Of a DNA stretch of 64,000 bases, positions 11,067 through 64,000 are shown piece after piece. The position numbers were made by a program, and so were the translations under genes. The stretch comes from Patescibacteria group bacterium UBA7396 (GTDB lineage: Bacteria > Patescibacteriota > Gracilibacteria > BD1-5 > UBA6164): contig DKNE01000024.1 in the NCBI GenBank assembly GCA_002470645.1, forward strand, positions 8,369 to 72,368, written 5' to 3'. Each line of letters begins with the position of its first letter. Within the stretch, counting starts at the first letter, position 1. Under the pieces are notes generated by a model that saw only the letters and a program-made list of their open reading frames with translations, was not told the origin of the DNA and did not search any database.

Positions 11067-12038
11067 ATGCTAGAACAAAAATATACAGTATACAATAAAA
11101 TCATTGAAAAAATAAAAAAGGCTAAATATATAGCTCTTGTAAGCCATAAAAATCCAGATATTGATACTTTAGGATCTTCTAGTGGATTTTACCAAGCGAT
11201 ACAAGACAATTTTTTGTATAAAAAAGTAGATCTTGTATGTATAGATAAAATTCCACAAAAATATGGTTTTTTGGCACATATAGATAAATTTAAACAAGAA
11301 TTTTATCCAAAAAATTATGACCTCATAATATTTTTTGATAGTGGGAGTAAAACTCAAACAGGATTTGATGAAAAATTTCCTGAATTATTTGATTGAAAAA
11401 CCTATAATACGATTTCTATAGATCATCATATTACCAATGAACTTTATGCAAAGCAAAATATTTTAAATACCTCTTATTCTTCAACGACAATGATAGTATT
11501 TGAAATACTCCTCTTAACTCAGATGAAGATTTCAAAACAAACAGCGACTCATTTGCTTGCTGGAATATATACCGATACTGGTGGATTTAAACATTCAAAT
11601 ACCAATGAAGTTACCTATTTACTCGCAGGAAAACTCATTGAGTTATGAGCTGATTTTGAAAAAATAGTAGACAAATTTTTTAAAAATAATTCTTTGTCTA
11701 CTATAAAACTTTGGTGAAAAATACTCTCAGATAGTTTTATAGATGAAAAATGAGTATTATATTCATATGTAAATAAATCGATGTTGGAGAGTTTTTGAGC
11801 TCATTATGAAGATATTTCTGGGGTGGTTGATTATCTCAATATGTCAGAATGAATTACCTATTCTGCTCTACTCACACAAAAATGAGAATACGTAAAAGCT
11901 TCTTTGAGAACTCTTCGAGATGATATAGATCTCACTCAAATAGCAAAACAATTTGATTGAGGATGACATAAAAAAGCCTCTTGATTTACAACCAAAGCAC
12001 AATTAGAAGAAATAAAAAGCTTTAACTTAAAAATATAA
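11067..12038 (+). CDS. DHH/DHHA1 phosphoesterase (NrnA-like oligoribonuclease / pAp phosphatase), 323 aa
   Basis: The sequence contains VSHKNPDIDTLGSS, IFFDSG, SIDHH and the DHHA1 motif GGGHKKASG (Gly as TGA). I prefer the ATG at 11067 to the TTG at 11016 used by the ORF track. Confidence 0.8.
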
Positions 12039-61517: not shown

Positions 61518-61916
61518 TTAAAATTTATCATCTTCTTCAATATGTTCATCATCATGATCAATTTCATCAATTGATTCAAAATCAGATTTTTTATTTAAGA
61601 AGATAAGGCTTGAAATTACGATTTCTGTTTTATATGATTTTGTTCCGTCTTCTTTTTCAACCACTCTTGTTCTGAGTCTTCATTCTACATATACGAGTTT
61701 TCCTTTTGTTAAGAACTTTTCAGCTCTTTCAGCTAAATTCCCCCATGCAACACAATTATGAAACTCACTTTCTGATTTATTTTCTCATTCAGAAGTTTTA
61801 TAATATCTGTTAGTAGCAAGAGAAAAGAGAGCTACTTTTTTACTATTATCAGTATTTTTCACTAAAGGGTCTCTGGTAACATTTCCGATTAGTATAACTT
61901 TGTTTACCGTTCTCAT
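61518..61916 (-). CDS. ssb: Single-stranded DNA-binding protein (132 aa)
   Basis: The sequence is MRTVNKVILIGNVTRDPLVK...[32 protein letters not shown].... The acidic tail ends in DDKF. Two Gly are encoded by TGA. Confidence 0.9.
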
Positions 61917-61934
61917 CTTATATGCATTAAAAAA

Positions 61935-62222
61935 TTAAACATCTTGTCTTACGAACATATGTCTCCAAATATTGAGATCTAAGTTCATAAGTTTAGTAAT
62001 TTCTACGATACTTTTCCCGTTCATTTCTAAAGTAAAAAGTACATAAAAACCTCTATCAGAAGAATTAATTTTGTAAGCAAGTTTTTTATCTCACCAAACA
62101 TCTTCTTTTTCAATTTTTGCTCCAGTATTTGTTAAAGCAGTTTTTACATTTTCTAAAGTTGTATTTCTATCAGCTTCAGAAATGCTTGGATTAACAATGA
62201 GCATAAGTTCATATTTTGCCAT
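61935..62222 (-). CDS. rpsF: 30S ribosomal protein S6 (95 aa)
   Basis: The sequence is MAKYELMLIVNPSISEADRNTTLENVKTAL...WGDKKLAYKINSSDRGFYVLF. It is part of the canonical rpsF-ssb-rpsR order. Confidence 0.9.
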
Positions 62223-62242
62223 ATATTTCCTATGGGTTAATA

Positions 62243-62263
62243 TCTTTCATGATTCATGAAAGA
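62243..62263 (-). promoter_or_regulatory. 10-bp perfect inverted repeat in the rpsF 5' leader
   Basis: TCTTTCATGA-t-TCATGAAAGA lies 21-41 nt upstream of the rpsF ATG, downstream of the predicted promoter. Confidence 0.4.
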
Positions 62264-62298
62264 AGGATATAAAATTGCTTTTATAAAAAGCTTGGAGT

Positions 62299-62326
62299 AT
62301 TGTATGAAAAATATGATTTTTGTCAA
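62299..62326 (-). promoter_or_regulatory. Promoter candidate for rpsF-ssb-rpsR (TTGACA-16 nt-TACAAT on the minus strand)
   Basis: On the plus strand, TGTCAA lies at 62321-62326 and ATTGTA at 62299-62304. Confidence 0.5.
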
Positions 62327-62411
62327 AAAATAATGTGGAAAATTCTGTAATAGTTTAAATGGATGGCTCGTTATTTATTCTATTTAAAGGTTTTTTTAAA
62401 ATTAATATATT

Positions 62412-62555
62412 GCCTAACGTTTAAGGATATGAGAAGTTTACAAAAATACCTTTGAATTTCAATTTTGAATTTTTGTAAACTTGGGAGAAAGAAATTTGAC
62501 TTCCTTTGAATATTTTTTGTTCCAAATTTCTTGAACCTCATATCCTTTGTTATGT
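62412..62555 (-). other. 144-nt structured element with attC-like organisation directly after the GNAT stop
   Basis: Read on the minus strand, ACATAAC (62555-62549) is followed by an 11-bp outer stem, AAGGATATGAG (62547-62537) pairing with CTCATATCCTT (62433-62423). Two internal hairpins follow, with 10-bp and 14-bp stems, and both loops carry the same 9-mer. The element ends AAAC-GTTAGGC (62418-62412). Confidence 0.35.
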
Positions 62556-62559
62556 GATG

Positions 62560-63046
62560 TTACAAAATTTTTTTGATCATTGTTATCAGTCTATCTTGAT
62601 ACCCTAGTTTTTGGTAAAAATTATGTGTCTTTTTATTTGGTTCAAATATATCAACTGAAATAATATTGCATTTATGAATTTGAAAATATTCCTCCATTTG
62701 TTTCATAAGCAAAGAGCCAATATTTTTGCCACGATATTTTTCACTAACAATTAATTCTAAAATTATTCCAACTTTTGAAGGAATACACTCCAATTTTTCT
62801 TCTTCTGAAGACTCTTCAATAATACCGGCTATTATACCAACTGGAATATTTTCAAATTCTGCTATATAGATTATTCCATGATTTTGTTCAATCTTTTTTA
62901 GTGTATTGTTGATATATATATCTCCATATTCAGGCAATCTTCTTAATCTTTGCAATGGATCTATTTGAAACCAAATAATCTTGCAACTCTTCAATTAGAT
63001 TCACAAGAACTTCTTTATTGCCATTATATTCAATAATTTTTATCAT
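62560..63046 (-). pseudogene. GNAT-family N-acetyltransferase with an apparent single-nucleotide frameshift near 62965-62980
   Basis: The frame with ATG at 63046 gives MIKIIEYNGNKEVLVNLIEELQDYLV. The rest of the fold lies in the +1 frame (track ORF 62560..62994), including the acetyl-CoA motif ELIVSEKYRGKNIGSLLM. That frame is closed by TAA at 62997-62995 just upstream and has no ATG until far downstream. Joined, the product is about 162 aa. Confidence 0.6.
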
Positions 63047-63088
63047 ATTTATAACGATGATTTACAGTATAAAAAATTTTGTAATTTT

Positions 63089-63154
63089 ACATAACGCTTG
63101 CTTCTATGAGATGTTTTGCGAAGTTGAGCAAAATATGGGAGAGTGAAGTGTAAC
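63089..63154 (-). other. Second, shorter copy of the TATGAGA-hairpin-TGGGAGA element, ending (minus strand) in GTTATGT
   Basis: On the plus strand the element runs ACATAAC (63089-63095), TATGAGA (63105-63111), an 8-bp hairpin (63112-63135), TGGGAGA (63136-63142), then GTGTAAC (63148-63154). Its flanks are the same as in the 62428-62488 copy but the stem sequence is completely different. Confidence 0.35.
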
Positions 63155-63321
63155 GAGGGTTTACCGTATTTCTTTTGGATTTATATTATTTTGTAAAAGC
63201 ATTTTTCTCTTTAAAAAAGAGGATTTGTTTTTAAATTTTAAAAAAGAAGGGGCTGGATGATAGTCCAGAGAGAGTTCCTCAGAGCTTGAATAAAATAAAA
63301 AACTTAGTTTTCCAAACTATA

Positions 63322-63350
63322 AAAAGATATAATTTTATATTATATCTTTT
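63322..63350 (-). terminator. Hairpin overlapping the serS stop (probable terminator)
   Basis: AAAAGATATAAT-tttat-ATTATATCTTTT forms a 12-bp stem. The serS stop codon lies in the loop. Confidence 0.5.
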
Positions 63351-64000
63351 CATAACATATATGGTCTTAAAACTTCTGGTATAATCACATTTCCATTAAC
63401 AGTTTGATAGTTTTCTATAATTGCAACAAGTATACGTCAACAAGCAAAAGCTGTTGCATCATTTGTATGTACCAACTCAAGATTTCAATTATTACGACGA
63501 ACACGTGTTTGTAATCTTCTAGATTGATAATCAGTCATATAATCTGCTGTATGTGTTTCACGATACTTATTTTGTCAAGGTAACCATGCTTCAATATCAG
63601 ATCATTTAGCATTTGGTTTACCTATATCAAAAGTACATTTCTGCAATTTTTGATATGGTAATCTTAATTTTTGCATCATATATTCTTGAATAGCTGAAAA
63701 AAATAAATGCTCATCATGTGATAATTCTGCAACAGAAAAACTTTCCATTTCTAATTTATCAAATTGATGCATACGAATAATTCATTCCATATCTTTTCAG
63801 TATGTTCAAGCTTCTCAACGAAAACTTGTAGCATATCATATATATCTTATTGGCATATCTTTTTCATCAAAAATTTCGTTTGCATGCATTGATCATAAAA
63901 CATGTTCAGCTGATCACTGTAACCACAAATCTTGACCTTCTATTTTGTAACGATCTTCTTTTGGTTCTAAACGATCCATTGCATCATACAAAGCTGTTTT
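63335..64000 (-). CDS. serS: Serine--tRNA ligase, C-terminal 221 aa; 5' end lies beyond the window end
   Basis: Class II motifs are present: [58 protein letters not shown], and HTNDATAFACGRILVAIIENYQ. Gly is encoded by TGA at several positions. The stop is TAA at 63337-63335. Confidence 0.9.

Follow-up and report, generated by a model that had tools for sequence, protein, structure and literature searches.

The locus described here raises the question of whether a gene and the folded DNA behind it form an integron-type gene cassette, and if so, which kind of system moved them. We analyzed a 64,000-nucleotide (nt) stretch of DNA (hereafter, the window) from the Patescibacteria group bacterium UBA7396, a 1.2-Mb Gracilibacteria genome in 38 contigs (G000), in which the window corresponds to C3:8369-72368. 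TGA is read as glycine in this genome; translation with table 25 makes typA, ssb and a 4417-aa open reading frame (ORF) continuous. On the minus strand, the window carries a seryl-tRNA synthetase gene (63335 onward), a 288-nt gap, an ORF for a GNAT N-acetyltransferase, a 337-nt gap and rpsF-ssb-rpsR-typA, in this order, and the 337-nt gap contains a 144-nt element (62555-62412). An initial annotation, made from the letters of the window alone, had read the GNAT gene as an integron-type cassette ending in this element. The cassette site was supported by our analysis, whereas a canonical integron was not, as the IntI domain and extrahelical bases are missing. Judging from sequence comparison, the GNAT gene and its 3' element very probably belong, as a single gene cassette, to an integron-like system that is native to Gracilibacteria, in which UGA encodes Gly. 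Note that genomes are denoted by G codes and contigs or loci by L codes, and that 201 genomes sampled from the order were used for the comparisons.

By the canonical criterion, an attC site has the plan R''(RYYYAAC)-L''...L'-R'(GTTRRRY), folds as an imperfect palindrome and measures 57-141 nt, as compared with 144 nt for the present element and ~102 nt for the related B type described below. Each motif listed in the initial annotation was found where it had been placed (Table 1). GTTAGGC at the R' end fits GTTRRRY perfectly, as had been claimed; ACATAAC at the R'' end, which had been called close to RYYYAAC, is the exact reverse complement of a 7-mer upstream of the gene and is one position off RYYYAAC. 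The element folds as a three-way junction, in which an 11-bp outer stem (the L box) surrounds hairpins of 10 and 14 bp, and the 9-mer CCTTTGAAT is present twice (62449-57 and 62503-11), once in each hairpin loop. The L box is a perfect 11-bp helix without extrahelical bases, confirming a caveat raised earlier, and has an asymmetric spacer (A versus AAAC) instead. The fold is stable (z = -5.7 for RNA, -6.25 for DNA), and none of 200 shuffled sequences reached it. When the whole of G000 was scanned for the pattern AAC-A-[11 nt]...[reverse complement]-ARRC-GTT irrespective of sequence, this site was the one match, versus 0-1 in 10 shuffled genomes. With z about -6 and this single match, the site exceeds chance. 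The element is the only complete site of its kind in G000, and a BLAST search of its own genome and 40 relatives found no real copies except for a 70% match in G016.

Upstream of the GNAT gene, the sequence at 63306-63086 matches multi-copy intergenic repeats of several genera with 84-97% identity. Within it lies part of a site of the B type, whose full copies have the plan [variable ...AAC]-A-GCTTCTATGAG-(~55 nt with an inner hairpin)-CTCATAGAAGC-AAAC-GTT[variable]; the 144-nt element is built on the same plan (ACATAAC-A-AAGGATATGAG ... CTCATATCCTT-AAAC-GTTAGGC). Conservation among B-site copies ends immediately past GTT, only GTTR is conserved in R' across sites, and classes of left ends match classes of right ends (e.g., GTCTGACAAC with GTTGTCAGAC, and CGCCTAAC with GTTAGGCG). 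B sites were found in 32 of the 201 genomes and 14 of 54 genera, often 0.4-2 kb apart, and the site family is 76-98% conserved within Gracilibacteria. When 29 full sites were aligned, 93% of the L-box cells were paired, with double changes at 5 of 11 positions, and the AAC/GTT core was paired in 98%; the R extension within one site was paired in only 47%. In an alignment of 65 sites, which was fitted to a model and is thus biased toward structure, 93.9% of the cells were paired and 165 were doubly changed versus 42 in shuffles, with slid controls at 45% or below. The L box is 91-93% paired family-wide, and the inner-hairpin, R-core and L-box pairings are preserved through compensatory changes. 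A covariance model (R1) was then built from B sites of other genomes only, without the 144-nt element. A search of the whole of G000 (E <= 10) with R1 gave two matches, namely a truncated site upstream of the GNAT gene (53.8 bits) and the 144-nt element (28.1 bits, E 1.5e-4); in the latter, the R and L pairs are complete (14 of 14), and the unpaired A, GGUUC and AAAC show no difference. The initial annotation had proposed a search with the attC covariance model; R1, built from related sites in other genomes, recovered both the element and the upstream half-site.

The relatives also carry the arrays that would be expected of an integron. In G198, a genome in one contig, at least 16 same-strand sites extend over ~25 kb (316.5-341.3 kb) and end 2.4 kb from a recombinase gene. 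The cassettes between them are 0.46-4.1 kb long with co-oriented ORFs, some are duplicated, and their cargo includes restriction-modification genes, methyltransferases, SDR and GNATs. Two 151-nt sites of this array have R'' (CATCACATAAC), the L box, the TCTCCCA box and hairpin 1 in common with the 144-nt element; compensatory changes are seen in hairpin 2, and homology is gone after AAACGTT. Close homologues of the element thus stand inside a cluster beside a recombinase, which answers the earlier call for further copies. The cassettes with the 151-nt sites were expected to carry the same GNAT, and a P-loop ORF was found there.

The initial annotation had further relied on the rule that a cassette begins with bases complementary to its own R''. 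We compared positions 4-10 after GTT with the reverse complement of the R'' of the next site. Consecutive sites matched at 5.12 of 7 positions, with at least six matches in 20 of 34 pairs, as opposed to 3.03 +/- 0.26 in random pairings (maximum 4.0 in 5000 draws) and 3.09 when a site was compared with itself, and the rule was thus borne out across arrays. The window follows it, as the upstream GTTATGT is the reverse complement of the downstream R'' ACATAAC. By the same logic, the interval that separates the recombinase gene from the first site should contain attI, recognizable as the reverse complement of that site's R''. An exact match of 9-10 nt to the predicted junction was present in 9 of 11 platforms, at a distance of 96-113 nt from the start codon in 7, and it is preceded by a conserved stretch (TTCGyAT ... 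AAATCAAr ... TTCrGATArAGnGTAG/TT; here and below, the slash marks the junction). As a separate observation, two families of ~100-nt conserved cassette 5' leaders, common to different ORFs, begin right after G/TT (G002:C13 8741+ and 13790+; G013:C4 (L034 10319+); L145 1950+; G000:C12 11300+), and at least one cassette has a leader with ~100 nt of complementarity to its 3' end.

These results bear on the idea that the 144-nt element is an RNA feature, either a terminator or 3' untranslated region of GNAT or an upstream regulator of rpsF, and that its likeness to attC is incidental. The strong RNA fold (z = -5.7), the position between the stop codon and the rpsF promoter and the 9-mer common to both loops would suit such a feature. 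However, an Rfam search of 61800-63500 (E up to 10) gave chance-level matches only, the rpsF leader begins ~80 nt beyond the element and most relatives have the leader but not the element, homologues of the element follow unrelated genes in an array with homology gone right after GTT, and the element obeys the R'/R'' rule. We consider this idea barely tenable, although the element may have a secondary role as a terminator.

A second tyrosine recombinase is found patchily, in 29 of the 201 genomes, and is tied to arrays, whereas a XerA-type chromosome-resolution recombinase would be a housekeeping gene with a copy in nearly all genomes of the lineage. A different, housekeeping Xer-like gene was present in 41 of 41 relatives sampled. 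Sites and the second recombinase occur together in 18 genomes, sites alone in 14, the recombinase alone in 11 and neither in 158 (Fisher 3e-10). Both are on one contig in 11 genomes, where each of the 16 linked sites is on the divergent side of the gene, 0.4-25 kb away. The recombinase genes themselves have 4-13 in-frame TGA codons each, read as Gly, and the protein belongs to a large family, the top 120 members of which are all ~270-290 aa long and carry generic names only. Its best match in PDB is the Vibrio integron integrase VchIntIA (2A3V, E 1e-43), to which it aligns in two blocks. In NCBIfam, it scores 209.9 bits with the integron integrase model TIGR02249 (cut-off 265) and 220.8 bits with the archaeal XerA model NF040815 (cut-off 220), the latter being borderline, and none of the 41 relatives has a match to the integron-integrase model above cut-off. 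The integrase search that had been proposed turned out favorably when relatives were taken into account, as the array-linked recombinase was found there; G000 has no intact one and only a remnant. The one full tyrosine recombinase of G000 (C10) is far below the integron-integrase cut-off, and a recombinase fragment at the end of C8 is only weakly similar (29%, E 0.004) and does not represent the array recombinase.

On these grounds we regard it as very improbable that the GNAT gene is a canonical integron cassette, moved by the classical IntI of another organism, that merely landed in G000. It is true that GTTAGGC is a perfect GTTRRRY, that GNATs are common cassette cargo and that the cargo is free of TGA, and at G012:C110:2667-3477 a TGA-free sequence matched the integron-integrase model (126 + 202 bits), with the IntI-specific region included; this match may represent a canonical IntI on a contaminant or standard-code contig of that bin. 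Yet a match above cut-off was absent from all 41 relatives, the site family is tied to a short recombinase that itself uses TGA for Gly, the sites have a fixed A/AAAC spacer and no extrahelical bases, and their family conservation lies within Gracilibacteria.

In relatives, the system consists of the ~270-aa tyrosine recombinase, an attI-like site ~100 nt from its start codon and a row of co-oriented cassettes. Each cassette ends in an attC-like fold, R''(...AAC)-A-L''(11 nt)-variable hairpins-L'(11 nt)-AAAC-R'(GTT...), and the comparisons show that the bases past GTT are already part of the following cassette, with whose R'' they pair. The recombinase would cut and join at G/TT on a folded single strand, with the bottom strand weakly favored, and the asymmetric 1-nt/4-nt spacer would substitute for extrahelical bases as the polarity cue. 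Regarding the strand, stem mismatches in 55 distinct full sites were 17 A.C versus 6 G.T on the ORF strand, indicating that the opposite (bottom) strand pairs slightly better, as in classical integrons; this points weakly to a bottom-strand preference.

Another possibility is that the same cassette system works by Xer/dif-like recombination on double-stranded DNA, with R and L serving as duplex binding arms. It accommodates the position of the recombinase at the XerA cut-off and below that for integron integrases (220.8 versus 220, and 209.9 versus 265), the absence of both the IntI insertion that contacts extrahelical bases and the extrahelical bases themselves, and a recurrent site variant that keeps only L'-AAAC-GTT. 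On the other hand, L'' and L' are 60-110 nt apart, and their outer halves vary (GCTTC, AAGGA, CAGTA, GCCTC), always with a complementary change, which is expected of base pairing and not of a protein reading a fixed duplex. Furthermore, R'' pairs with the far end of the same cassette, which is only sensible in a folded or circular form, and a separate housekeeping Xer exists in 41 of 41 relatives. We therefore judge duplex recombination to be unlikely and favor recombination of folded sites.

Table 1. Positions of the cassette, its sites and associated features (window coordinates unless a contig is given).
Feature	Position	Strand	Remarks
GNAT cassette, 677 nt	62418..63094	-	between two G/TT points: TTATGT at 63094 to G of GTTAGGC
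GNAT N-acetyltransferase gene, 161 aa when intact	62560..63046	-	ATG 63046 to TAA 62562-62560; PF00583
Complete attC-like site, 144/151-nt subtype	62412..62555	-	fold statistics, covariance model R1, structural scan
R'' ACATAAC	62555-62549	-	part of 144-nt site
Unpaired A after R''	62548	-	part of 144-nt site
L'' AAGGATATGAG	62547-62537	-	left arm of 11-bp outer stem
Hairpin 1, 10 bp	62532-62523 / 62498-62489	-	inner hairpin
TCTCCCA box	62488-62482	-	between hairpins of 144-nt site
Hairpin 2, 14 bp	62482-62469 / 62447-62434	-	inner hairpin
L' CTCATATCCTT	62433-62423	-	right arm of 11-bp outer stem
AAAC spacer	62422-62419	-	between L' and R'
R' GTTAGGC	62418-62412	-	perfect GTTRRRY
Truncated B-type attC-like site	63085..63181	-	R1 53.8 bits, E 6.6e-14, left pairs broken
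Truncated site L' CTCATAGAAGC	63110-63100	-	kept right arm
Truncated site spacer AAGC	63099-63096	-	
Truncated site R' GTTATGT	63095-63089	-	upstream end of GNAT cassette
5' arm of 25-nt inverted repeat	63071..63095	-	R' GTTATGT + extension ...TTACAAAATTTTTT
3' arm of 25-nt inverted repeat	62549..62573	-	overlaps ORF end (KKIL stop) + R'' ACATAAC
Element A, ~170-nt repeated intergenic module	63126..63299	-	starts ~30 nt past stop of extra serS
Conserved rpsF promoter + leader	62223..62334	-	right-hand limit of variable DNA; outside cassette
Recombinase remnant, ~40 codons	G000:C12:11035-11163		comparison with L145 and array recombinase
attI-like site, intact	G000:C12 ~11250-11290		beside remnant

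The limits of the cassette are given by the complete site on one side and the truncated B-type site on the other, and the whole block is nearly identical in three other contigs (L144, L145 and L146). The truncated site retains the TCTCCCA box and the inner hairpin TTTTGC...GCAAAA; compared with full copies in relatives, R'' and L'' are gone. This loss was caused by a deletion between two CTCGTTrCACT repeats of the unit formed by element A and the B site. Element A contains a terminator-like hairpin CTGGACTATCATCCAG followed by a T-run, and its copies are 84-90% identical across genera (G002, G009, G012 and G013), some of them followed by a B site and others not; in relatives, it can directly precede a complete B-type site. 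Five or more copies were seen in G002:C13. Without R'' and L'' in the upstream site, the GNAT cassette should no longer be excisable by site x site recombination. Separately, we noticed a recurrent, conserved left-truncated B variant (...AAAAAGTAGAyrTAAAGGGTyrTTGyACTTCGCTCTCCC...L'-AAAC-GTT) in which the R and L boxes cannot form (G002:C13 8644-8740; G013:C4 (L034 10209-10318); L145 2855-2962; L079). This variant may be a marker of immobilised cassettes or a duplex 'simple site'.

The 7-nt inverted match between the two ends of the cassette that had been noted initially is present, and the actual repeat is longer, with 22 of 25 nt paired (62549-62573 versus 63071-63095). In G198, the start of cassettes with the 151-nt sites likewise pairs with the DNA ahead of R'', giving an equivalent extended stem (9 bp and 11 bp separated by a 2-nt mismatch), the sequence of which differs from the 14-bp extension in the window. 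The 25-nt repeat is therefore structural, because an equivalent stem of different sequence recurs in cassettes of the same subtype. A miniature inverted-repeat transposable element or other transposon was also considered for this repeat and dismissed in view of the R'/R'' pairing and the stem extension recurring with another sequence.

The history of the copy in G000 can be read from the L145 contig, where the order is thioredoxin, era, a 66-aa ORF, an attI-like site, a 208-aa ORF cassette, the GNAT cassette and rpsF. The 66-aa ORF represents what is left of the recombinase N-terminus, and the attI-like site comes after it. From this order, the GNAT cassette would once have stood second in a small array behind attI. 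The same era-remnant-attI block is present on G000:C12, and its homology to L145 ends ~9 nt past G/TT. In G000 and L144, the array appears to have been broken inside the upstream site and joined to the operon of the second seryl-tRNA synthetase gene (serS2), and the GNAT cassette in G000 is, by this comparison, a stranded relic beside the rpsF operon. The window captures decay at strain resolution, with a platform remnant, a half-lost site and a cassette fixed beside an essential operon.

Several points weigh against a mobile cassette system of the kind proposed. All evidence for recombination at the sites is comparative. The window has one complete site only, and G000 lacks an intact recombinase. 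In the recombinase of the relatives, IntI residues 174-241, the 68-residue IntI-specific domain, are represented by 13 residues. The Fisher value overstates the association between sites and recombinase, as kin are not independent. Fourteen of the 34 consecutive site pairs fit the cassette rule poorly, which may be due to missed or decayed sites. Lastly, near-identity between L145 and the window begins ~20 nt upstream of G/TT, at L' with the shared AAGC spacer. In the boundary check in relatives that had been proposed at the outset, L145 has the same GNAT and site in a different left context, which is in favor of a cassette, but its left breakpoint, expected at G/TT, falls within the upstream site. 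A left boundary inside the upstream site indicates a rearrangement there, not a clean cassette exchange.

The GNAT gene itself bears on the origin of the cargo. The read-through protein matches PF00583 (Acetyltransf_1; E 8.5e-17, 61.9 bits versus a cut-off of 20.7), and no NCBIfam equivalog threshold was reached. The initial annotation was right that the gene is frameshifted; the reading frames switch near 62970, owing to one extra T in the T-run 62968-62970 (GGTTTC versus GGTTC in intact copies). An intact 161-aa protein (P0121), 99% identical, is encoded on L144, L145 and L146, and L144 and L146 match the window at 99.8% with the extra T as the one gap. Since the ORF is intact in near-identical contigs from two other samples, the frameshift is either a private mutation or an assembly error. 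It was also correct that none of the 9 Gly codons is UGA, and this is significant, given that TGA makes up 52.9% of the Gly codons in G000 (P = 0.0011 for 0 of 9); only 2 of 107 size-matched G000 ORFs are free of TGA. A 74% identical GNAT occurs in a Patescibacteria genome that uses the standard code, as called from 0 of 9 genes with in-frame TGA and one gene that stops at TGA, and no site lies beside that copy. The lack of TGA together with this homologue suggests that the cargo was most likely imported from a standard-code donor. Independently of the cassette, G000 has an 1118-codon ORF with 82 Gly and no TGA, unique among 596 long ORFs, which is likely another import from a standard-code donor. 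In the G198 array (G198:C1:316467-343728; L127, L128), ORFs are bimodal in their Gly codons: most (4-32 Gly) are free of TGA, and in a few TGA accounts for ~90% of Gly. Such a distribution suggests that native genes stand beside recent standard-code imports.

Many G198 cassette genes as well as the GNAT gene are thus free of TGA, though the host puts half or more of its Gly on this codon, and cassette capture may be a main route by which recoded bacteria acquire genes of standard-code neighbors. Taken this far, we lean toward the view that Gracilibacteria have a working integron-type gene capture without the IntI domain or extrahelical bases, which also acts as a one-way gate for standard-code genes.

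Among known systems, sedentary chromosomal integrons of the Vibrio superintegron type are alike in having a divergent tyrosine recombinase with an adjoining attI-like junction, long co-oriented arrays of mostly single-ORF cassettes with folded R''-L''...L'-R' ends, a G/TT junction, cassettes whose first bases pair with their own R'', lineage-homogeneous sites, duplicated cassettes, and defense or accessory cargo. Unlike them, the Gracilibacteria system has a recombinase with 13 residues in place of VchIntIA 174-241 and a score below the integron-integrase cut-off, a perfect 11-bp L box without extrahelical bases but with the asymmetric A/AAAC spacer, one site subtype with a three-way junction and extended R stem, and a host that reads UGA as Gly. 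Xer-dependent modules, such as the pdif modules of Acinetobacter plasmids and IMEX elements, are bounded by Xer-type recombinase sites. They resemble the present system in placing gene modules between recombinase sites, and the recombinase here is at the XerA cut-off; however, the arms here are 60-110 nt apart and covary as base pairs, and the recombinase is an accessory, patchy gene (29/201) that is dedicated to arrays and exists alongside the housekeeping Xer.

Clusters of attC sites or single attC sites without an integrase are known as CALIN and SALIN, respectively (IntegronFinder 2.0, PMC9024848), and the window is alike in having a cassette and an attC-like site that lie apart from the platform remnant and lack an integrase in their vicinity. 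Insertion of cassettes at places other than att sites has also been described (Loot et al., bioRxiv 10.1101/2022.09.11.507474). In contrast, the GNAT cassette was probably relocated by array rearrangement rather than by insertion at a genomic GTT, because L145 still has it behind attI. Archaeal integrons, proposed as a gene-transfer route across deep lineages (Ghaly et al. 2022, PMC9668308), likewise show integron architecture outside the classical bacterial phyla, but archaeal IntIs are reported to retain the IntI-specific domain that the Gracilibacteria recombinase lacks. Our literature search found no paper linking integrons to Gracilibacteria, Absconditabacteria or attC sites of the candidate phyla radiation (CPR).

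The literature defines IntI by its additional domain, and IntegronFinder requires it (IntegronFinder 2.0, PMC9024848; PMC9668308); according to Messier and Roy 2001, as cited in PMC9668308, this domain is necessary for integron recombination. In the prevailing view, the extra domain and the attC extrahelical bases allow recombination of folded single-stranded sites, and detection software relies on the domain. If integron-type capture in Gracilibacteria is true, the additional domain would not be required for folded-site recombination, and the recombinase could be a simpler, Xer-like integron integrase, representing an earlier stage or a secondary loss. The definition of the integron would then widen, a natural minimal system would be available for mechanistic work, and current surveys would be missing such elements in CPR bacteria.

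With regard to the setting of the cassette, DNA upstream of rpsF is different in every same-genus genome compared, and the right-hand limit of this variable DNA is the rpsF leader, which is 76-91% identical in most relatives, including across the family. In G001, a B-type site directly abuts the same leader. The promoter/leader comprises TTGACA...TACAAT and a palindrome, and variable DNA always stops just upstream of it. On the other flank, serS2 (434 aa) is a second, divergent copy, ~48% identical to the core serS on G000:C19, and is absent from nine same-genus genomes. Because of this absence and the variable DNA upstream of rpsF, an empty-site comparison at serS-rpsF was ruled out. The serS2 gene (window 63335-64000, minus strand; G000:C3:72369-77405) is the last gene of a TGA-rich operon with no site within 5 kb upstream, so that its interpretation as a further cassette was unsupported. 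The partners in this operon are a DegT/DnrJ/EryC1 aminotransferase and a 685-aa GFO/IDH/MocA plus kinase-like protein, and serS2 may encode an amino-acid-activating enzyme in a sugar or small-molecule pathway.

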